In this document: positions 8,980 to 62,836 of the stretch, in pieces
How the letters are laid out: each line of letters begins with the position of its first letter
Position numbering within the stretch: position 1 is the first letter of the stretch
NCBI GenBank assembly: GCA_965214255.1
Contig: OZ243948.1
Location: forward strand, 516,916-580,915
Length of the DNA stretch: 64,000 bases
Origin: Alphaproteobacteria bacterium
Lineage (GTDB): Bacteria > Pseudomonadota > Alphaproteobacteria > SMXP01
Direction of reading: 5' to 3'
Notes under the pieces: model-generated
What the model was told of the DNA's origin: nothing
The model's database searches: none
The model's input: the letters and a program-made list of their open reading frames with translations, nothing else
Translations under genes and position numbers: made by a program

Positions 8980-10196
8980 ACATTCCACCAAGATCTTCGG
9001 ACTCGTCAAACCTCGACCGTAAAAGCAAAGTCCACATCATGCTGGTGGCAGGGGAACCTTCAAGTGACGCACTTGGAGCGCAATTGATGTCTGCGCTTCG
9101 TTTGTTGCACAGCGGCAATCTGGAATTTTCAGGTGTTGGCGGTCCTGCCATGTCGAAACAGGGTCTCAAGAGCCTCTTCAATTTCGATCAATTTGCACTT
9201 GTTGGAATCACACAAATCGTCCAGCGCGCTCCAACCCTGCTCAAAAGAATTCGAGAAATTACCGACTATGCTCTCGCGGCTACACCTGACGCCATCGTCT
9301 TGATTGACAGCAACGAGTTGAATCAGAGGATAGCGCAAAGGCTCAAAAGCAGGGGTTTTTTGCGTCCCATTGTTAAATTCGTGTCGCCGCAAATCTGGGG
9401 AAGCCGCCCGAACCGTGTTTTCAAAATTGCGCAAGTCTACGATCATATTTTGACTTTGTTGCCGTTCGAGCCTGCCTGCTACCAAAATACTTCTTTACTC
9501 GCTACATATGTCGGTCATCCCGTCACTGAACGCCGTCCCCAGCCAGGCAGTGGCGTCAACTTCCGTAAAGCCCACAACATTCCACATGATGAACTTCTGC
9601 TTGCCGTATTACCCGGTAGCCGCAGGAGTGAAATCAGACTTTTGTTACCGCTTTTTATGAAAACGGTCGAACTGCTGGCGCAAACGGTCCCCCAATTTGC
9701 AGTCGTCGTTCCGACCTTACCTTCTGTTCATGACAGAATTGTTGAAGTCCTAAAGACTTGGCCGGTCCAAGCAATAGTCGTGGTAACTGAAGAAGACAAA
9801 TATGCAGCGTTCGATGCATCAAATATAGCCCTGGCCGCTTCAGGCACGGTTACTCTAGAGCTTGCAATTGCTCAAGTACCCATGGTCGTTGGATACAAGA
9901 TAGACCGGCTGGGAGCGATGATCTTCCGCCGTCTAATCATGGTTCGTCACATTACAATGGCAAACCTTATTCTGGGGCAAGAAATCATTCCCGAGTTTTT
10001 GCAAGAAAAGTGTAAACCTGAACTCATGGCCAGTGCCTTAGTCAAGTTGATAGAGGATGATACGGTCCGTAACGAGCAACTCGCTGCATTTGACTCCGTC
10101 ATTAATGAACTAACGGTGGAGGGTGAAAAGCCAAGCGTAAGAGCCGCGAGAGCCGTATTGGAAATCGCCGGTGTCTCTATTGTGCAAGCTAGTTGA
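8976..10196 (+). CDS. lpxB: Lipid-A-disaccharide synthase
   Basis: 'IMLVAGEPSSDALGAQLM' glycosyltransferase family 19 N-terminus. The ATG at 8976 overlaps the lpxI TGA (ATGA coupling); an alternative start is the ATG at 9039. Confidence 0.9.
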   Translation: MNIPPRSSDSSNLDRKSKVHIMLVAGEPSSDALGAQLMSALRLLHSGNLEFSGVGGPAMSKQGLKSLFNFDQFALVGITQIVQRAPTLLKRIREITDYALAATPDAIVLIDSNELNQRIAQRLKSRGFLRPIVKFVSPQIWGSRPNRVFKIAQVYDHILTLLPFEPACYQNTSLLATYVGHPVTERRPQPGSGVNFRKAHNIPHDELLLAVLPGSRRSEIRLLLPLFMKTVELLAQTVPQFAVVVPTLPSVHDRIVEVLKTWPVQAIVVVTEEDKYAAFDASNIALAASGTVTLELAIAQVPMVVGYKIDRLGAMIFRRLIMVRHITMANLILGQEIIPEFLQEKCKPELMASALVKLIEDDTVRNEQLAAFDSVINELTVEGEKPSVRAARAVLEIAGVSIVQAS

Positions 10197-10235
10197 GCAA
10201 AAGGGGGCTTCCTTCTGCCTCAATTGATTCAAGGC

Positions 10236-11543
10236 TCACCTTTTGGATAGAGGCACGTACGCCCGCTGCTTCTCCCCGGTGTATATTTGTCTCGGGCGTC
10301 CGATTCGCTGATTGGGATCCTCGATCATTTCCTCCCATTGCGCTATCCAACCGACGGTTCGTGACAGTGCAAAAACAACGGTAAACATAGTTGTGGGAAA
10401 ACCCAATGCCTTCAGAGTAATCCCGGAGTAGAAGTCGATATTGGGATAGAGCTTTTTCTCGATGAAATACTCGTCTTTGAGCGCAATTTTTTCCAATTCC
10501 ATGGCGACTTCCAAAAGTGGGTCATCCTTTATGCCCAATTCTTCGAGGACTTCGTGACATGTTTGCTGCATTACCCGTGCTCTCGGGTCATAGTTTTTAT
10601 AGACCCGGTGGCCGAATCCCATGAGTCGGAAGGGATCGTCTTTATCCTTGGCACGGTTCACGAATTCGGGAATTCGATCAATACTGCCGATTTCTTTGAG
10701 CATATTCAGTGCGGCCTCGTTGGCACCACCATGAGCAGGTCCCCATAAGCAGGCAATGCCGGCAGCAATGCAAGCAAACGGATTGGCGCCCGATGAACCG
10801 GCCAAACGGACTGTTGACGTCGAAGCGTTTTGTTCATGATCGGCATGCAAAATGAATATGCGGTCCATTGCACGGGCTAGAATGCGGCTAGTTCTATAAT
10901 TTTCCGCGGGTACACCGAAGCACATGTTCAAGAAGTTCTCTGCATAGTCCAGGTTGTTTCTCGGATAAATAAAGGGTTGGCCAATTGAATATTTGAATGC
11001 CATCGCGGCGATTGTTGGCATCTTGGCAATCATTCGTCTGCATGCAATCATGCGCTGGCGCGAGTCTGAAATATCCGTTGAGTCGTGATAGAAGGCTGAT
11101 AAGGCCCCAACTACGCCAACCATAATGGCCATCGGATGCGCGTCACGTCGAAAACCTTTAAAGAAATTCGTCAATTGTTCGTGGACCATCGTGTGATGCG
11201 TGATGGCCTTTTCAAATTCTTCCATTTGTTGTGCGTTGGGCAACTGTCCGTAAAGGAGCAAATAGCACGTCTCTAGAAAGCTTCCCTGTTCGGCCAGTTC
11301 ATCAATAGGATATCCTCGATAAAGCAACACGCCGGCTTCGCCGTCGATAAACGTAATTGTGGATTCGCAGCTTGCCGTTGAAGTGAAGCCAGGGTCATAG
11401 GTGAAAGCGCCTGTTTCAGAGTACAATTTACGCACGTCAACGACGTCCGGCCCGAGGTTTCCTTGGAGAACGGGAAGTTTGATCTCCCTATCATCCAAAG
11501 TCAGTTTTGCGTTGCCGTCAAACGTTTTAGCTTTAACTGCCAT
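10236..11543 (-). CDS. gltA: Citrate synthase
   Basis: 435 aa containing '[14 protein letters not shown]' and other citrate synthase signature regions. Confidence 0.95.
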
Positions 11544-25581: not shown

Positions 25582-27319
<1,738 letters not shown>

Positions 27320-57007: not shown

Positions 57008-57673
57008 TCATCCAGTACGCGTCGTCTGACCGTCGCCGTCCGCCGCGTCCGTCGGGTCCTTAAGCGACGGCCAATCGCTGAACGGGAAGGGTTTGTCCTC
57101 CCTGTTGTAGGTCAGATACATAAGAATTTCATAAACGAAGGCGCTCAGGTTCCGCCCGAATGTGAGCAGGCGTCCGTTCGTCTTTCCCGACAGCGCCATC
57201 GAAATGAATTGAAAGACGATAACGGTGAAGACCAGCAACTCCGCGAGCCCCCAAACGATCATGAACAGCAGCATGTAAAGTCCGCGCAGCCACGTGCTGC
57301 GCTTCTTGATGCTGTCCTTGAGATTGGATCGAGTCTCTTCGTTGGTCATGGCCGCCTCCTCTGACTCCGGCACCGGTTCCGCTTCCAAGGCCGCTTGAGG
57401 CGCGGTCAATGGGCCTTCGGCTTCCGGGCCGCCTGCTTGTATTGATCCTTGGTGAAAATGTTTTGAAATCTGCCGGATCACTTCCTCATATCGAGCCTTT
57501 GTGAAAATGTGGCGGGATCCGCTTCCGCAGCGGATCCCCTCCTTACGCATCGCCCGCCGCGCTGTTTTGGGCGTCACCCCGAAATGCGCCGCGACGTCCT
57601 TGGGCGTGTAGAAATCTTTCATCGGGTCGTTCGTCATGGTCACCTCTGCTTCGGTCTCCGGAGCGGACGTCAT
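57008..57673 (-). CDS. Fusion protein: N-terminal excisionase/MerR-type HTH (HTH_17-like) plus C-terminal two-TM small membrane domain (DUF4389-like)
   Basis: 'FYTPKDVAAHFGVTPKTARRAMRKEGI' resembles excisionase-family HTH. The C-terminus has two hydrophobic helices ('LYMLLFMIVWGLAELLVFTVIVFQFI', 'LSAFVYEILMYL'). The start overlaps the stop of the upstream gene (ATGA). Confidence 0.55.
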   Translation of the reverse strand: MTSAPETEAEVTMTNDPMKDFYTPKDVAAHFGVTPKTARRAMRKEGIRCGSGSRHIFTKARYEEVIRQISKHFHQGSIQAGGPEAEGPLTAPQAALEAEPVPESEEAAMTNEETRSNLKDSIKKRSTWLRGLYMLLFMIVWGLAELLVFTVIVFQFISMALSGKTNGRLLTFGRNLSAFVYEILMYLTYNREDKPFPFSDWPSLKDPTDAADGDGQTTRTG

Positions 57674-58356
57674 GTCGCGACTTCATAGAATATGCGTTTC
57701 GACTTGTCTTTGCCGATAAATTTCGCGGTCATCTTTCGGGCGGTGTCCTTGGTCCGGATGTTGTCGCGAAAGTGGGCGTGAAACGCCGAGAGCGCCGCCA
57801 GCCTCTCGGGGTCCGACTCCGGCGCGCATCGAACGAGCCGGGAGAAATAGGCGTCGAGATAGTCCAGTCCGCAGCGGGTCAAATCGTCCAGACGGGCGCG
57901 CGGATTGACGCCGAACACCGTCGCCTCGTGCCGGTACTCTTCCATCCAGTCGGGATATTTCGTCTGCACCGCGAACGGCTCGTAACCCTCAAGTATGGGT
58001 TCGAGCGGCGCGACCCATCGCGCCCGATAGGCGTCGTCCCGGAACGGCGTGCACACGTTCAAATGACAGATGACCCGGCGCGGTATCATCAGATAGAACA
58101 GAAGAAAAATCGGCGCGGCGACGGTTTCCGGCGGATAGAAAATCATGTTGAGCGCGTCGAGCGGCGGGACTTTGAGGTCGAAGTGAAGCGCCGTCATTTT
58201 GGCCAGATGCTCGGACTTCCAGTTGCGCGCCGAGATCTTCACCATCCTCAGGAACGCGGAATTGTCCGATATGTCCGGGTCCAGCGCCACTTCGGTGAGC
58301 GGCGTGTACCGGTCCGCCTTGTCGATGATTTCCCGCATCCGGGCGGTCTGGTCCAT
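57670..58356 (-). CDS. Hypothetical protein with a divergent ferredoxin-dependent bilin reductase (PcyA/PebA/HY2, Fe_bilin_red)-like fold. The catalytic Asp position appears substituted.
   Basis: Three regions align to FDBR signatures as recalled from memory. 'KSEHLAKMTALHFDL...LDALNMIFYPPE..APIF' aligns with 'FRKMHLELAKV..LDILHCVMFPEP..LPLF'. 'ICHLNVCTP' aligns with 'SAAIADLSP'. C-terminal 'RDNIRTKDTARKMTAKFIG...RIFYEV' aligns with 'QKNDKTRRVLEKAFG...QVLFDV'. The start is uncertain; an alternative is the ATG at 58387-58389 or the track start at 58452. Confidence 0.4.
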   Translation of the reverse strand: MDQTARMREIIDKADRYTPLTEVALDPDISDNSAFLRMVKISARNWKSEHLAKMTALHFDLKVPPLDALNMIFYPPETVAAPIFLLFYLMIPRRVICHLNVCTPFRDDAYRARWVAPLEPILEGYEPFAVQTKYPDWMEEYRHEATVFGVNPRARLDDLTRCGLDYLDAYFSRLVRCAPESDPERLAALSAFHAHFRDNIRTKDTARKMTAKFIGKDKSKRIFYEVAT

Positions 58357-58375
58357 GGCGGCGCCTCTCGCGTGT

Positions 58376-58600
58376 TCAAACCTCTTCATACAGGCCGCCG
58401 AGCAGTTGGCGATAATTATTCGTGTACGGACAATTCGCCGCCAGCGTCTCAAGCCGCGCTTCTATGTCGCGGTAGACGGTGCTTCGATCCACCTTGAGCG
58501 CCTCGGCGATCTGCCACACGCGCCAGCCCTTCAGCACGTGTTCCATGATCGCGTCGCGGCGTATCTCTCGAACTTGGCGGGCCGATACGGTTTGGGTCAT
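58376..58600 (-). CDS. Small stand-alone HTH protein (resolvase/HTH_7/HTH_23-type DNA-binding domain)
   Basis: 74 aa. 'GWRVWQIAEALKVDRSTVYRDIE' matches the resolvase-type HTH consensus (G...IA..L.VSRSTVYR). Located immediately downstream of the tandem repeat array. Confidence 0.55.
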   Translation of the reverse strand: MTQTVSARQVREIRRDAIMEHVLKGWRVWQIAEALKVDRSTVYRDIEARLETLAANCPYTNNYRQLLGGLYEEV

Positions 58601-58664: not shown

Positions 58665-59200
58665 GTGTTTTGTCGCAGCCCTGGTCGCAAATCTGAACGG
58701 CGCTCGTCATGGCTAAACGCGCGCGATTCCGCCATGTTCAGGGGCAAACCGACTTTGCGACAGGGTTGCGCGTTGTCGCAGCCTATAGTCGCAAATCCGG
58801 ACGGCGCGCGACATCGCGAAAACGGCGCGATTCCGCCATGTTCGAGGGCAATTCGACTTTGCGACAGGGTTGCGCGTTGTCGCAGCCCATAGTCGCAAAT
58901 CCGGACAGCGCGCGACATCGCGAAAACGGCTCGAGTCCGCCATGTTCAGGGGCAAACCGACCTTGCGACAGGGTTGCGTGTTGTCGCAGCCCATAGTCGC
59001 AAATCCGGACGGCGCGAGTCATCGCGAAAACGGCGCGATTCCGCCCTGTTCAAGGGCAATCCGACCTTGCGACAGGGTTGCGCATTGTCGCAGTCAATAG
59101 TCGCAAGACCGGACCGCGCGCGGCATGGCTAAACGCGCGCGATTCCGCCCTGTTTGAGGGCAAACCGACTTTGCGACAGGGTCGCGCGTTGTCGCAGGTT
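58665..59200. repeat. Tandem array of about 5 copies of a 104-bp non-coding repeat, each carrying a TGCGACA-N11-TGTCGCA hairpin
   Basis: The motif 'TTGCGACAGGGTTGCG(C/T)' recurs at 58755, 58859, 58963, 59067 and 59171, an exact 104-bp period. Units 2-4 are near-identical. Units 1 and 5 share the variant 'CATGGCTAAACGCGCGCGATTCCGCC'. A period of 104 is not divisible by 3. Confidence 0.85.
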
Positions 59201-59344: not shown

Positions 59345-61523
59345 GTGAACGTTCAAACGCACGAAAAACTGAAAGCCGGGATCTGGGACATCGCGAACCT
59401 GCTGCGCGGGCCGTACCGGCCTCCCCAGTACCGCCTGGTGATGCTTCCGATGGTCGTGCTCCGCCGGCTCGACTGCGTCCTGGAGTCGACCAAAGACGCG
59501 GTGCTGAAGCGCCGCGACGAACTCGAAGCGCAGTGCGTGCCCGAAGCCGCGATGGACAAACTGCTCGGCCAAGCCGCCGACCCGAAGCGCAAGCATCCGC
59601 TCTACAATATCAGCCCCTACACCTTCGCCCGCCTGCTCGGCGACGCCGAGAACATCGCGCCCAACCTCGCGGCCTACATCAACGGCTTCTCGCCGACCGC
59701 CCATTCCATCTTCGAGCGCTTCAAGTTCACCGATCAGATCGAGAAACTCGACGCGCACAACCGTCTCTTCACCGTGGTCAAGGCCATGGCCGGCGTCGAC
59801 CTTCACCCCGACCGGATCGACAACCTTCAGATGGGCTACCTGTTCGAGCATCTGGTGATGCGTTTCAACGAACAGGCCAACGAGGAAGCGGGAGACCACT
59901 TCACCCCGCGCGAGGTCATCCGCCTCATGGCCAACCTCATCTACACCGGCGAACCGGACGTCTACAAGCCCGGCATTTTCCGCAAAATCTACGATCCCGC
60001 GTGCGGGACCGGCGGCATGCTCTCGGAGTCCGAAAAACTGATCCGCGACCAGAACAAACATGCGAACCTCGCGCTCTACGGCCAGGAGTACAACGACGAG
60101 GCGTGGGCGATCTGCTGCGCGGACATGCTCATCAAGGACCAGGACACCGGCAACATCGTTCTCGGCGACACTCTGGGCGACGGCAAGACCGGAGACGACT
60201 TTGAGGGCTTCCATTATATGATGGCCAATCCGCCCTTCGGCGTCGAATGGAAGGCGCAGAAAGACACGGTCCGACGCGAGCACGAGACCTTGGGGCTCTC
60301 GGGCCGCTTCGGCGCCGGGCTGCCCGCCGTCGACGACGGCTCGCTGCTTTTCCTCCAGCACATGATCTCCAAGATGCACCCGTACAGGTGCGGGGGGGGG
60401 GCGTAGAGAGCAGCCCGGATCGAAGATCGCTATCGTCTTCAACGGCTCGCCTTTGTTTTCCGGCGACGCCGGATCGGGGCCGTCCGACATCCGCCGCTGG
60501 ATCGTAGAGAACGACTGGCTCGACGCCGTCGTCGCGCTGCCTGACCAGCTTTTCTACAACACCGGCATCTTCACCTATGTCTGGCTGGTGACCAACCGCA
60601 AGGCGCCGGAGCGGCGCGGCAAGGTGCAGCTTGTCGACGGCGCGCGCTTCTTCCGCAAGATGAAGAAGAGCCTCAACAACAAGCGCAACGAGATCGCCGA
60701 AGACCAGATCCGCCGCCTGACCCGCGTCTACGCCAACTTCGAAGACGGCGAGACCGCCGAAGTCCAGGTCGACGGCGAAACCGAGACCCGAGTCGTTTCC
60801 CGCGTCTTCGAGAACCGCGAGTTCGGGTTTCTCAAAATAACCGTCGAACGCCCCTTGCGCATGAACTTCGAGGCGTCGCCTGAGCGCATCGCCGGGCTCG
60901 ATGAGCTGACGGCCTTCGCCAACCTGGCGGCGTCGAAGAAACGCAAGGACGAGTCCGCCGCCGCGCGCGAAATCGCTGCGGGGCGAAAGCTGCAGGACGC
61001 CGTCCGCGCCCTGCTCTCGACGCTCGCCGAAAACGGACGATATATGGACCGGACGGCCTTCGACGCCGATCTGACGACGGCCGCCGAGCGCGCCGGCCTC
61101 AAGCTTCCCGCCCCGATCAGGAAAGCGGTCTTCGCGGCGCTTGGGCAGCGCGACCCGGACGCGGAGATCTGCCGCGACGGCGAAGGACGGCCGGAACCCG
61201 ACGGCGACCTCCGCGACAGCGAAAACATTCCCTTGCCGCCGGGAACGGAACTGCCCCTGCCCATGGACTTCGGGCCAGACCAGCCCAACGACCTGCTCGT
61301 CGAAGCGTTCCGGGACCATATCGACGCCTACATGGCGCGCGAGGTGCTGCCCCATATTCCCGACGCCTGGGTGGACTACGCCAAGACCAAAGTCGGTTAC
61401 GAAATCCCCATCAACCGGCATTTCCATGTCTACGAGCCGCCGCGCCCTATCGACGAGATCGAGACGGACATCGCCAAGCTCGAAGACGAGATCGCCGGGC
61501 TGTTGAAAGGGCTGAGGGCGTGA
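59345..61523 (+). CDS. hsdM: Type I restriction-modification system methyltransferase subunit HsdM, split into two frames at a G10 homopolymer (putative phase-variable gene)
   Basis: The N-terminal part (59345-60406) has the HsdM_N motif 'IWDIANLLRGPYRPPQYRLVMLPMVVLRRLD' and the 'NPPFG' catalytic motif. The C-terminal part (60453-61523 in the track, in frame from about 60402) has 'IVFNGSPLFSGDAGSGPSDIRRWIVENDWLDAVVALPDQLFYNTGI'. Removing one G from the tract fuses the parts. GTG start, SD 'GGAGAAGAG'. Confidence 0.85.
60392..60401 (+). repeat. Poly-G tract (G10) inside hsdM coding sequence; simple-sequence contingency locus
   Basis: The sequence reads 'gtgc' followed by ten G and then 'cgtag'. 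In the current frame it encodes 'CGGGA*'. With G9 it encodes 'CGGGRREQPGSKIAIVFNG...', which continues into the C-terminal HsdM domain. Confidence 0.8.
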
Positions 61524-62836
61524 CAGCCGAGTTCGAGCAGCGCTGGTTGAGCGATCTACAGCCCGACTGGACCGAGAGGCGGGCCGACTTTCTGTGCAAC
61601 CCTTACCGAGTGACAGTCGATCCCGAGATTTTTGGCGACGATCTAGTCGCGCACTACTCGATCCCGCAGGTTCAAAAGACCGGCGGACCGTTCATCGAAC
61701 CCGCAAGCGACATCGGCAGTACGAAATTACTTGTAACGGCACCCACCCTTCTGGTCTCGAAACTCAATCCAAGAAAGAAGACTATCTGCATCGCCGAACC
61801 CCACCCGGAGTATCCGACTCTTGCTTCGGGCGAGTTCGTCGCGATCATTTCCGACCAGATGGACCGTCGCTATGCTTACTATCTTTGGTGCAGCGAGAAG
61901 GTCACGGACCGGTTGTCCGCCATTGTTCAATCTGCCACCCGCTCGCACCAACGAGTGAACCCTGCCGACATCCAAAAGCTGCCGTGGAAATGGCCCCCGC
62001 TCGATATGCAGCGGCGCATCGCCGACTTTCTCGACGAAAAAACCTCGCGGATCGACGGACTGATCGAGAAGAAACGCGACCTTCTCGACCGGCTCGCCGA
62101 GAAACGCCAAGCCCTCATCACCCGCGCCGTCACCAGGGGCCTCGACCCCGACGCGCCGATGAAACCCTCCGGCATCGACTGGCTTGGCGACATCCCCGCG
62201 CATTGGAAGCGCATTCGTCTTCGCTGGCTATCCAGACGCTATGCCGGCGGAACCCCAAACACGAAGAACCCCGAATACTGGGACGGCGGCACCATACCTT
62301 GGCTCAAATCAGGGGCGGTGAACCAAGGCACCATTACCGAGCCTTCCGATCACATAACCGAACTGGCCTTGAAGGAATCCAGCGCGAAATGGATTCCTAA
62401 AGGCGCACTGGTGATGGCACTAGCCGGGCAAGGGAAGACCAAAGCAACTGTTGGTTTTCTTGGGATTCGGACAACGGGCAATCAATCGCTCGCCGCGATA
62501 GTCCCCGAGAAGATCGACGGCAAATACCTCTATTGGTGGCTGAGCAGTCAGTACCTCACGCTTCGCAATCTTTCGAGCCAAGATGGGCGCGACGGTTTGA
62601 ACCTGGATATGATTGGCAGCGTAGTTTGTCCGGTGCCCCCGCTCGATACGCAACGGCGCATCGCCGACTTTCTCGACGAAAAAACCGCACGGATCGACGA
62701 GACCGCAAAGCAGGTGCTCCGCTCGATCGAATATCTCTCGGAATACCGCTCGGCGCTGATCACGGCCGCCGTCACCGGCCAACTCGCGGCGGCGCAGACC
62801 GCCGACCTCGGCAACCTTTCCCCGCAGGGAGATTGA
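61520..62836 (+). CDS. hsdS: Type I restriction-modification system specificity subunit HsdS (two target-recognition domains)
   Basis: The conserved spacer repeats 'QRRIADFLDEKTSRIDGLIEKKRDLLDRLAEKRQALITRAVTRGLDP' and 'QRRIADFLDEKTARIDETAKQVLRSIEYLSEYRSALITAAVTGQL' flank two variable TRDs. The GTG start overlaps the hsdM stop (GTGA). Confidence 0.85.
   Translation: MTAEFEQRWLSDLQPDWTERRADFLCNPYRVTVDPEIFGDDLVAHYSIPQVQKTGGPFIEPASDIGSTKLLVTAPTLLVSKLNPRKKTICIAEPHPEYPTLASGEFVAIISDQMDRRYAYYLWCSEKVTDRLSAIVQSATRSHQRVNPADIQKLPWKWPPLDMQRRIADFLDEKTSRIDGLIEKKRDLLDRLAEKRQALITRAVTRGLDPDAPMKPSGIDWLGDIPAHWKRIRLRWLSRRYAGGTPNTKNPEYWDGGTIPWLKSGAVNQGTITEPSDHITELALKESSAKWIPKGALVMALAGQGKTKATVGFLGIRTTGNQSLAAIVPEKIDGKYLYWWLSSQYLTLRNLSSQDGRDGLNLDMIGSVVCPVPPLDTQRRIADFLDEKTARIDETAKQVLRSIEYLSEYRSALITAAVTGQLAAAQTADLGNLSPQGD

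Follow-up and report, generated by a model that had tools for sequence, protein, structure and literature searches.

Ferredoxin-dependent bilin reductases (FDBRs) are, to our knowledge, the only known route to phytobilins. Work on the pre-PcyA lineages from 2023 to 2026 addresses how this family arose in heterotrophs, a question of current interest. Here we describe a gene for a divergent FDBR-like protein on the minus strand of a 64,000-nucleotide stretch of contig OZ243948.1, from an uncultured alphaproteobacterium; this whole stretch, at its full length, is referred to as the window. The protein belongs to a small clade in which the central catalytic Asp of the family has been replaced, and its likely mechanism is weighed below against the known enzymes and against other functions.

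The pre-PcyA lineages of heterotrophs were defined by Rockwell et al. (2023, PMC10151467), and their genes all cluster with heme oxygenase and BBAG globins or other bilin-binding proteins (PMC10151467). Pre-1 and Pre-2 produce 3E-phytochromobilin (Frascogna et al. 2026, PMC13446030). The central Asp has been described as critical in all FDBRs, and in GtPEBB both Asp99, at this position, and the distal Asp219 are essential, with Arg215, a residue conserved in A-ring reducers, positioning Asp219 (Sommerkamp et al. 2019, PMC6755814). In HY2 of land plants, Asn stands at the center, and the relocated Asp116 serves instead (PMC6755814). Among the pre-PcyA enzymes, the D91N variant of Pre-2 has unaffected activity, Pre-1 carries Glu at the central position, and the D96N variant of Pre-3 gains heme and protoporphyrin IX, which copurify with it, and loses FDBR activity (PMC13446030). 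Two further FDBR clades without any characterized member have also been mentioned (Frascogna et al. 2026, PMC13193486).

The window protein is a genuine member of the FDBR family and fold. It matches Pfam PF05996 (Fe_bilin_red) with an E value of 8.3e-14 and 52.2 bits, above the gathering cutoff of 31, across model positions 3 to 223 of 228. When a profile of the family was compared with PDB sequences, GtPEBB was recovered at 2e-15 and tomato HY2, PebA, and PcyA at 1e-5 to 1e-7; in bits, PebB scored 60 among the solved FDBRs, and PcyA and the others scored 26 to 32. The NCBIfam equivalogs match only weakly and far under their cutoffs, with 34 bits for PebB (NF009723, cutoff of 327), 21 for PebA, 15 for NF009722 (cutoff of 283), and 12 for PcyA (NF002760, cutoff of 206). 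With the Pfam match above its cutoff and the equivalogs below theirs, the protein belongs to the FDBR family without being any of the named enzymes. A 17-sequence family alignment yielded an AlphaFold2 model with a mean pLDDT of 93 and a pTM of 0.91, and a Foldseek search of the PDB with this model returned GtPEBB (TM-score, 0.85) and tomato HY2 (0.88), followed by PebA, PcyA, and RCCR. Other families of the fold group scored lower in structure than the FDBRs did, and the window protein has no match to them in Pfam or NCBIfam. In a search of a viral fold library, phage FDBRs were the sole matches. A preliminary description of this DNA had called the product a divergent FDBR member from three conserved blocks; the profile search and the model, which resembles PebB and HY2, bear this out in sequence and in fold, and the three blocks reflect true homology rather than chance.

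The extent of the gene had to be revised. The preliminary description had taken the minus-strand open reading frame (ORF) at 57670 to 58452, which encodes 260 amino acids from a TTG start. The ORF is real, but its start is not the gene start. A search among 5.8 billion proteins retrieved 18 homologues, 223 to 240 amino acids long except for two apparently partial entries of 158 and 161 amino acids. All align from an internal ATG of the window ORF, the 5' extension being present in none, and public gene calls record exactly the 228-amino-acid product, so the gene runs from 57670 to 58356 and the first 32 codons of the ORF are excluded. In the related locus L001, nucleotide homology begins about 40 nucleotides upstream of the ATG at 58356. 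The corrected features are as follows.

57670 to 58356, minus strand: FDBR-like gene, 228 amino acids, with its ATG at 58356 to 58354 and its stop codon at 57672 to 57670
58357 to 58452, minus strand: 5' extension of the mechanical TTG ORF, outside the gene, overlapping the 3' end of the HTH_23 gene upstream

To place the active site, residue equivalences were taken from hidden Markov model (HMM) alignments to solved FDBRs, and codons were read directly from the sequence. Conservation was scored across 62 nonredundant clade members drawn from protein searches and 46 genome loci. The codons at the diagnostic positions are listed here.

58147 to 58149, minus strand: Asn70, at the position of PcyA His88 (HMM alignment)
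58096 to 58098, minus strand: Phe87, at the position of the central catalytic Asp, Asp105 in PcyA and Asp99 in GtPEBB (alignments to PDB FDBRs)
58057 to 58065, minus strand: His98-Leu99-Asn100, with His98 on the strand that forms a hairpin with that of Phe87
57745 to 57756, minus strand: Arg201-Thr202-Lys203-Asp204 (HMM alignment of 'rtkdkaqgm' to 'AEKDPARGM' of GtPEBB)

The stretch P-L-F-G-C-D105-I-V of PcyA corresponds to P82-I-F-L-L-F87-Y-L in the window protein. Phe87 thus occupies the place of Asp105 in PcyA and PebS, Asp84 in PebA, and Asp99 in GtPEBB, which confirms the earlier observation that the catalytic Asp at the equivalent of PcyA 'GCDIV' is missing and, with it, that the active site is altered. 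Neither Asp nor Glu is found at position 87 in any clade member (58 Phe, 2 His, and 2 Leu). The Glu76/His88/Asp105 triad of PcyA is likewise not kept, its equivalents being Leu57, Asn70, and Phe87, and Asn70 is shared by 59 of the 62. Asn100, conserved in all but one member, stands where the 'a-I-a-D-l-s-P' block of FDBRs has its Asp. The distal side of the pocket is different in this respect. Asp204, within the motif I-R-T-K-D, is present in 61 of 62 proteins, with Glu in the remaining one, and it corresponds to the distal Asp of GtPEBB (Asp219), PebS (Asp206), and HY2 (Asp256) in the loop between two distal helices. Arg201 and Thr202 are each found in 60/62. Arg201 lies three residues before Asp204, and the Arg of PebB and HY2 (Arg215 in GtPEBB and Arg252 in HY2) lies four residues before the distal Asp. 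His98 is kept in 60 members as well, and a few basal members have a His at 87 or 88 rather than at 98.

The predicted structure suggests how these residues may be arranged. Strands assigned by DSSP in the model span residues 66 to 74, 83 to 91, and 94 to 102, with a two-residue turn at 92 and 93, so that residue 87 would stand opposite residue 98. By the same strand register, residue 70 would face residue 87, which agrees with PcyA, where His88 and Asp105 are known to be adjacent. Asn70, Phe87, and His98 should therefore form a single cross-strand row on the pocket face.

Several lines of evidence indicate that the clade is maintained by purifying selection. Between the window gene and that of L001 (87% identical proteins), synonymous divergence (dS) is 0.55, nonsynonymous divergence (dN) is 0.064, and dN/dS is 0.12. 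Over the 62 members, which span Gamma- and Alphaproteobacteria, 36 positions are at least 95% conserved, and the most conserved parts are the pocket-lining strands and the distal helices. With the family profile as the query, a scan of 1.84 billion cluster representatives returned 31 matches at an E value of 1e-30 or below and 177 at 1e-3 or below. The second tier of these matches forms a sister clade of FDBR-like proteins of about 225 amino acids (P0027, P0030, P0032 to P0042, and P0048), the nearest relatives, of equal length and at 145 to 190 bits to the family profile. Like the window clade, the sister clade has Asn100 in place of the 'D-l-s-P' Asp, keeps the distal Asp, and is encoded by stand-alone genes without a nearby heme oxygenase; unlike it, the sister clade keeps the central Asp (P-x-F-x-x-D), has Tyr at position 98, and lacks Arg201. 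The combination of Asp87, Tyr98, and no Arg201 in the sister clade indicates that the changes in the window clade came as a set, and Asp87 to Phe, Tyr98 to His, and residue 201 to Arg look like a coordinated re-wiring. A rough neighbor-joining tree with PDB-derived anchor fragments places the two clades together, apart from the PcyA, PebA, and PebB/HY2 anchors, and is indicative only, as it has no bootstrap support and no authentic pre-PcyA sequence. All relatives with a source name are metagenome-assembled Gamma- or Alphaproteobacteria, all 46 genome loci come from metagenome-assembled genomes (MAGs), and every annotated member is called a hypothetical protein (e.g., MBT8441985, NND37837, and MEO8224828). 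Judged from its sequences, this is a distinct, coherent, and small clade with no characterized member. It has lost the central Asp throughout, retained the distal one, and acquired a His and an Arg.

What, then, might the protein do? The canonical pocket probably still binds a tetrapyrrole, and the active site looks re-wired rather than dead. The best reading is that of a tetrapyrrole-pocket protein, either a bilin reductase of a His/Asp type or a binder of heme or porphyrin. Within this pair, two-electron, A-ring-type bilin reduction with a His/Asp pair appears to be the single most likely mechanism, one that we put forward tentatively; it is favored because the distal Arg-x-x-Asp motif is conserved most strictly and because published variants show that activity does not always depend on the central Asp. 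The substrate would be biliverdin or a related bilin, with electrons supplied by ferredoxin. On the distal side, Arg201 would hold Asp204, which together with a bound water would function as in PebB and HY2, and His98 would stand in for the missing central Asp as proton donor and hydrogen-bonding partner. The source of the bilin and the acceptor of the product would be encoded elsewhere in the genome. The preliminary description had gone further and considered the protein likely noncatalytic. This does not follow from a dN/dS of 0.12 and the retention of Asp204, Arg201, and His98 in 61, 60, and 60 of the 62 members, and it is weakened by the literature, in which the central Asp is dispensable (Pre-2 D91N) or relocated (land-plant HY2) (PMC13446030, PMC6755814).

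A number of observations weigh against a His/Asp bilin reductase. At the level of residues, GtPEBB D99N is inactive (PMC6755814), and no FDBR with a central Phe is known to be active. The placement of His98 depends on a predicted model and strand-register logic, and with Arg201 at -3 rather than -4 its equivalence to GtPEBB Arg215 is only inferred. The genomic surroundings also offer no pathway partners. Heme oxygenase, phytochrome, globin, phycobiliprotein or BBAG, V4R, and ferredoxin genes are absent among all plausible genes between 37.3 and 64 kb of the window, as judged by Pfam, so the preliminary description was right that no heme oxygenase, phytochrome, or phycobiliprotein gene is nearby and that the setting is neither phycobilin related nor photosynthetic. 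Heme oxygenase, phytochrome, BBAG or globin, V4R, and ferredoxin genes are equally absent beside the gene in the related loci with precomputed Pfam calls, and across about 55 related loci no heme oxygenase, phytochrome, or globin gene was seen near it. A survey in which ORFs were called in 51 loci and the neighbors clustered revealed no universal neighbor of the FDBR-like gene and no conserved heme oxygenase or bilin-acceptor neighbor. A tblastn search of 942 kb with two HO-1 queries gave no match, which is weak evidence that concerns canonical heme oxygenases only.

The survey did uncover recurrent contexts. In the largest group, 15 gammaproteobacterial MAG loci (e.g., L052, 3208 to 10684, and L020, 3174 to 10657), the FDBR-like gene ends an operon that encodes, in order, a DUF4437 cupin, an Amidohydro_2 protein, an acyl-coenzyme A (acyl-CoA) ligase, a DsbA-like protein, and an alpha subunit of the type II dimethyl sulfoxide (DMSO) reductase family with a twin-arginine translocation (Tat) signal (TIGR03479, 855 bits). 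The alpha subunit gene is separated from the FDBR-like gene by 3 to 9 nucleotides in the two loci measured, L052 and L020. Downstream lie genes for TonB-dependent receptors or for MFS, CN_hydrolase, and UbiD proteins. Known type II DMSO reductase enzymes carry heme b in their gamma subunit; the operon maps of the 15-locus group showed neither a beta nor a gamma subunit gene. The proteins of three other loci, L002, L003, and L005, are 58 to 61% identical to that of the window, and these loci share among them Amidohydro_2, CN_hydrolase, UbiD, and SnoaL-like genes, the L003 locus being truncated. Elsewhere, the gene accompanies a glyoxalase and an ECF sigma factor, a carbamoyltransferase set, or the his operon. 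A link to heme uptake through the neighboring TonB-dependent receptors was considered and dropped, as the receptors of L001, L004, L007, and L052 score far below heme-receptor cutoffs and appear generic.

Some details of these loci deserve mention in their own right. After the FDBR-like gene, L002 and L005 encode a PvdO-like protein, three SnoaL-like proteins, and a TonB C-terminal-domain protein; the PvdO-like FGE-sulfatase protein of L002 (9399 to 10205) scores 234 bits to a dihydropyoverdine dehydrogenase model, below the cutoff. Directly upstream in L005 (7037 to 7963) is a divergent HemF-like protein with 26.9 bits to Coprogen_oxidas, below the cutoff of 31.8. This protein belongs to the FDBR fold group and is absent at the equivalent place in the closely related L002.

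In the window itself, the gene sits in a housekeeping stretch, with the minus-strand order rlpA, dacC, tmk, holB, and tatD and, farther along, hflX, hfq, trkAH, and ntrYX; no homologue bearing an organism name exceeds about 61% identity to HflX. Upstream of the FDBR-like gene come a small HTH_23 gene, tandem repeats of a 104-bp unit, and a restriction-modification system of type I. The two genes that flank it directly are the following.

58376 to 58600, minus strand: HTH_23 gene, 74 amino acids (Pfam HTH_23, 28.3 bits; cutoff of 24.6)
57008 to 57673, minus strand: downstream ORF with an HTH_17-like region (residues 21 to 60) and a DUF4389 two-helix membrane domain (residues 125 to 199) (Pfam)

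DUF4389 (PF14333) is found in the downstream ORF with an E value of 4.7e-26 and 90.9 bits (cutoff of 25), and its HTH_17 match, at 23.3 bits, is under the cutoff of 27. The ATG of this ORF overlaps the end of the FDBR-like gene, but the true start is probably the ATG at 57637, 36 nucleotides farther on, which yields 209 amino acids. The Shine-Dalgarno sequence GAGGTG and this ATG are conserved between the window and L001, and the 209-amino-acid form is called in another assembly, so the ATGA overlap at 57670 to 57673 is probably not the real start, and translational coupling through it is judged unlikely for the same reasons. A second, internal Shine-Dalgarno sequence and ATG at 57349 precede the DUF4389 part. 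On the other side, the HTH_23 gene ends 19 nucleotides before the start of the FDBR-like gene and is present in L059 and absent from L001.

Of 55 loci searched by tblastn, the window and L001 alone have helix-turn-helix (HTH) and DUF4389 sequences beside the FDBR-like gene; a third carrier, L059, with an FDBR-like protein 98% identical to that of the window, was added later. The FDBR-like proteins of the three carriers are mutually 87 to 98% identical. In L059, the HTH-DUF4389 fusion is in frame and begins 45 nucleotides after the FDBR-like stop codon. In L001, a 77-nucleotide insert follows the stop codon and a 49-nucleotide deletion breaks the frame, leaving HTH (99 amino acids) and DUF4389 (107 amino acids) as separate ORFs. 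DUF4389 proteins elsewhere are mostly stand-alone and 115 to 180 amino acids long. As a family-wide partner, HTH-DUF4389 is ruled out by its restriction to three very close relatives. The pairing is real in a narrow lineage, is not a property of the family, and carries little functional information, and the HTH_23 neighbor likewise belongs to one lineage and not to the FDBR-like family. The coupling to a DNA-binding membrane protein proposed earlier thus stands as adjacency in the window, L059, and L001 and is not supported as a general statement. We also note a mosaic pattern within the fusion between two otherwise near-identical genomes, as window positions 57350 to 57637 and L059 positions 10001 to 10330 delimit an HTH half of about 40% identity next to a DUF4389 half of 100% identity, with the frame open in both.

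An Rfam search of 56.5 to 59.5 kb found nothing, and a scan for promoters and terminators did not rise above chance level. The 104-bp tandem unit, located between the HTH_23 gene and hsdM, is present in 5.1 copies with an 87% match (58670 to 59197). It occurs nowhere else in the 64 kb, is present in three copies at the same place in L059 (8644 to 8955), and is crossed by short ORFs that appear mechanical; Rfam finds nothing there. Beyond the array, hsdM is split into 59345 to 60406 (N6_Mtase positions 6 to 175) and 60453 to 61523 (positions 194 to 279) by a frameshift or as a pseudogene and is followed by hsdS (61520 to 62836) and the start of hsdR (from 62841). Farther away, pyrG is divided into CTP_synth_N and GATase parts on overlapping ORFs in different frames (25690 to 26541 and 26441 to 27319). 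Because pyrG is essential, this apparent frameshift may stem from an indel error in the assembly, and it calls for caution on ORF boundaries throughout the window. The G+C content climbs from about 50% at 1 to 24 kb (third-position G+C [GC3], ~0.50) to about 61 to 64% at 38 to 64 kb (GC3, 0.75 to 0.85) across housekeeping genes, and that of the FDBR-like gene is 0.60 in the window and 0.51 in L001. A gradient of this kind is unusual within one chromosome segment and could reflect recombination between lineages of differing G+C content or a chimeric assembly.

Against this background, other functions can be weighed. The main rival reading, which we regard as somewhat unlikely though it deserves attention, is that the protein is a nonreductive binder of heme or porphyrin, with His98 as an axial ligand, serving as a carrier, a store, a sensor, or an electron transfer module. 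The Pre-3 D96N variant, in which the equivalent Asp is lost, points this way, since it copurifies with heme and protoporphyrin IX and has no FDBR activity (PMC13446030). A His at or near the former Asp position throughout the clade would suit such a role, as would the inclusion of the porphyrinogen enzyme CPO in the fold group, the HemF-like gene directly upstream in L005, and the 15 loci in which an alpha subunit precedes the gene and beta and gamma genes were not seen. The near invariance of Arg201-x-x-Asp204, the motif of A-ring reducers, argues otherwise, as there is no obvious need for it in a simple carrier of heme. The FDBR-like protein also has no signal peptide, whereas the molybdenum enzyme is exported; the TonB-dependent receptors do not reach heme-receptor cutoffs; and the active site of CPO is on the opposite face of the sheet (PMC13446030). 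In a bolder and rather unlikely version, the FDBR pocket would have switched from linear to cyclic tetrapyrroles, with His98 ligating heme iron, to give a new class of cytoplasmic or Tat-hitchhiking heme proteins that, in the 15 gammaproteobacterial genomes, would be the redox partner of a stand-alone type II DMSO reductase alpha subunit, replacing the iron-sulfur (beta) and heme b (gamma) subunits. A milder form would make the protein the first bilin reductase with a His/Asp rather than an Asp/Asp pair.

Departing from tetrapyrroles altogether, the protein might be an enzyme or accessory for another substrate, recruited to aromatic-acid catabolic clusters. About 18 of the 51 loci, in Gammaproteobacteria- and Alphaproteobacteria-like genomes, encode a DUF4437 cupin, Amidohydro_2, an acyl-CoA ligase or CoA-transferase, and a DsbA-like isomerase, along with a flavin adenine dinucleotide (FAD) monooxygenase, CN_hydrolase, UbiD decarboxylase, and MFS or TonB-dependent transporters. 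We find this improbable, because the other two-thirds or so have unrelated neighbors (the his operon, glyoxalase and ECF sigma factor, or carbamoyltransferase genes and, in the window, rlpA-dacC-tmk), all characterized members of the fold group bind a tetrapyrrole, and conservation is highest in the pocket-lining strands and distal helices. Less probable still is a tetrapyrrole sensor that partners with the HTH_23 protein, the HTH-DUF4389 membrane protein, or both. The order HTH_23, FDBR-like gene, HTH-DUF4389, with short gaps, is common to the window and L059, and the fused frame has stayed open in both despite the divergence of the HTH half. This arrangement is confined to three assemblies with closely similar FDBR-like proteins, where such synteny is little informative; L001 lacks HTH_23 and has HTH and DUF4389 on separate ORFs; the HTH_17 match is under the Pfam cutoff; and DUF4389 is usually a stand-alone protein. 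Finally, the loss of the central Asp, the lack of pathway partners nearby, and the presence in the window of other apparently frameshifted genes, pyrG and hsdM, might suggest a decaying, nonfunctional relic of a bilin reductase. This is almost certainly not the case, as the conservation data already contradict it: the ORF is intact, dN/dS is low, the substitutions are fixed over 62 relatives from two proteobacterial classes with 36 near-invariant positions, and the predicted fold is of high confidence.

What is new here is an FDBR clade with a fixed signature of Asp-to-Phe replacement and His gain; the family itself is known. The clade represents a fixed, coordinated replacement of a critical FDBR residue in organisms without a visible bilin pathway beside the gene. 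An active protein would offer a new catalytic solution for bilin reduction and hint at uses of bilins in nonphotosynthetic Proteobacteria. If it binds heme or porphyrin instead, it would be a natural counterpart of Pre-3 D96N and would link bilin reductases to the porphyrin enzymes that share their fold. It is a good biochemical target, and the genomic context so far indicates no new system.

Comparison with the described enzymes sets the clade apart from each of them. PebB and HY2 (GtPEBB, 6QWQ and 6QX6; tomato HY2, 6KME) have the same alpha/beta/alpha sandwich with a central antiparallel sheet and distal helices, the same distal Asp, and an Arg one helical turn earlier. Identity to them is 13 to 15%, GtPEBB has Asp99 where the window protein has Phe, and the Arg of the window protein is at -3, not -4; moreover, the host is heterotrophic and shows no PebA, phycobiliprotein, or phytochrome context. 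Land-plant HY2 of Arabidopsis and tomato is the precedent for a non-Asp center, with Asn there and the donor Asp116 on a neighboring strand, at the position of PcyA His88. The window protein has Asn70 at that position, and its candidate replacement, His98, is on the other neighboring strand and is not an Asp.

The pre-PcyAs are likewise FDBR homologues of nonphotosynthetic bacteria, many known from MAGs, with Asn or Thr at the His88 position, and Pre-1 shares the lack of an Asp at the center, where it has Glu. Their clusters contain heme oxygenase, BBAG globins, V4R, and iron-sulfur proteins (Pre-1 and Pre-3) or B12/bilin photoreceptor-like proteins (Pre-2), none of which are found at the window. 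Membership in the pre-PcyA lineages was not adopted, as the defining clusters are missing in the window and in the related loci inspected and the best solved match is PebB; clade accessions (MBT8441985, NND37837, MEO8224828, and others) were not found in the available supplements of the three pre-PcyA papers. One paper lists an FDBR query, D6734_12105, under the label 'Unknown'. Pre-3 D96N has an equal loss of the central Asp but is an engineered single mutant, whereas the window protein carries multiple changes that are natural and long fixed.

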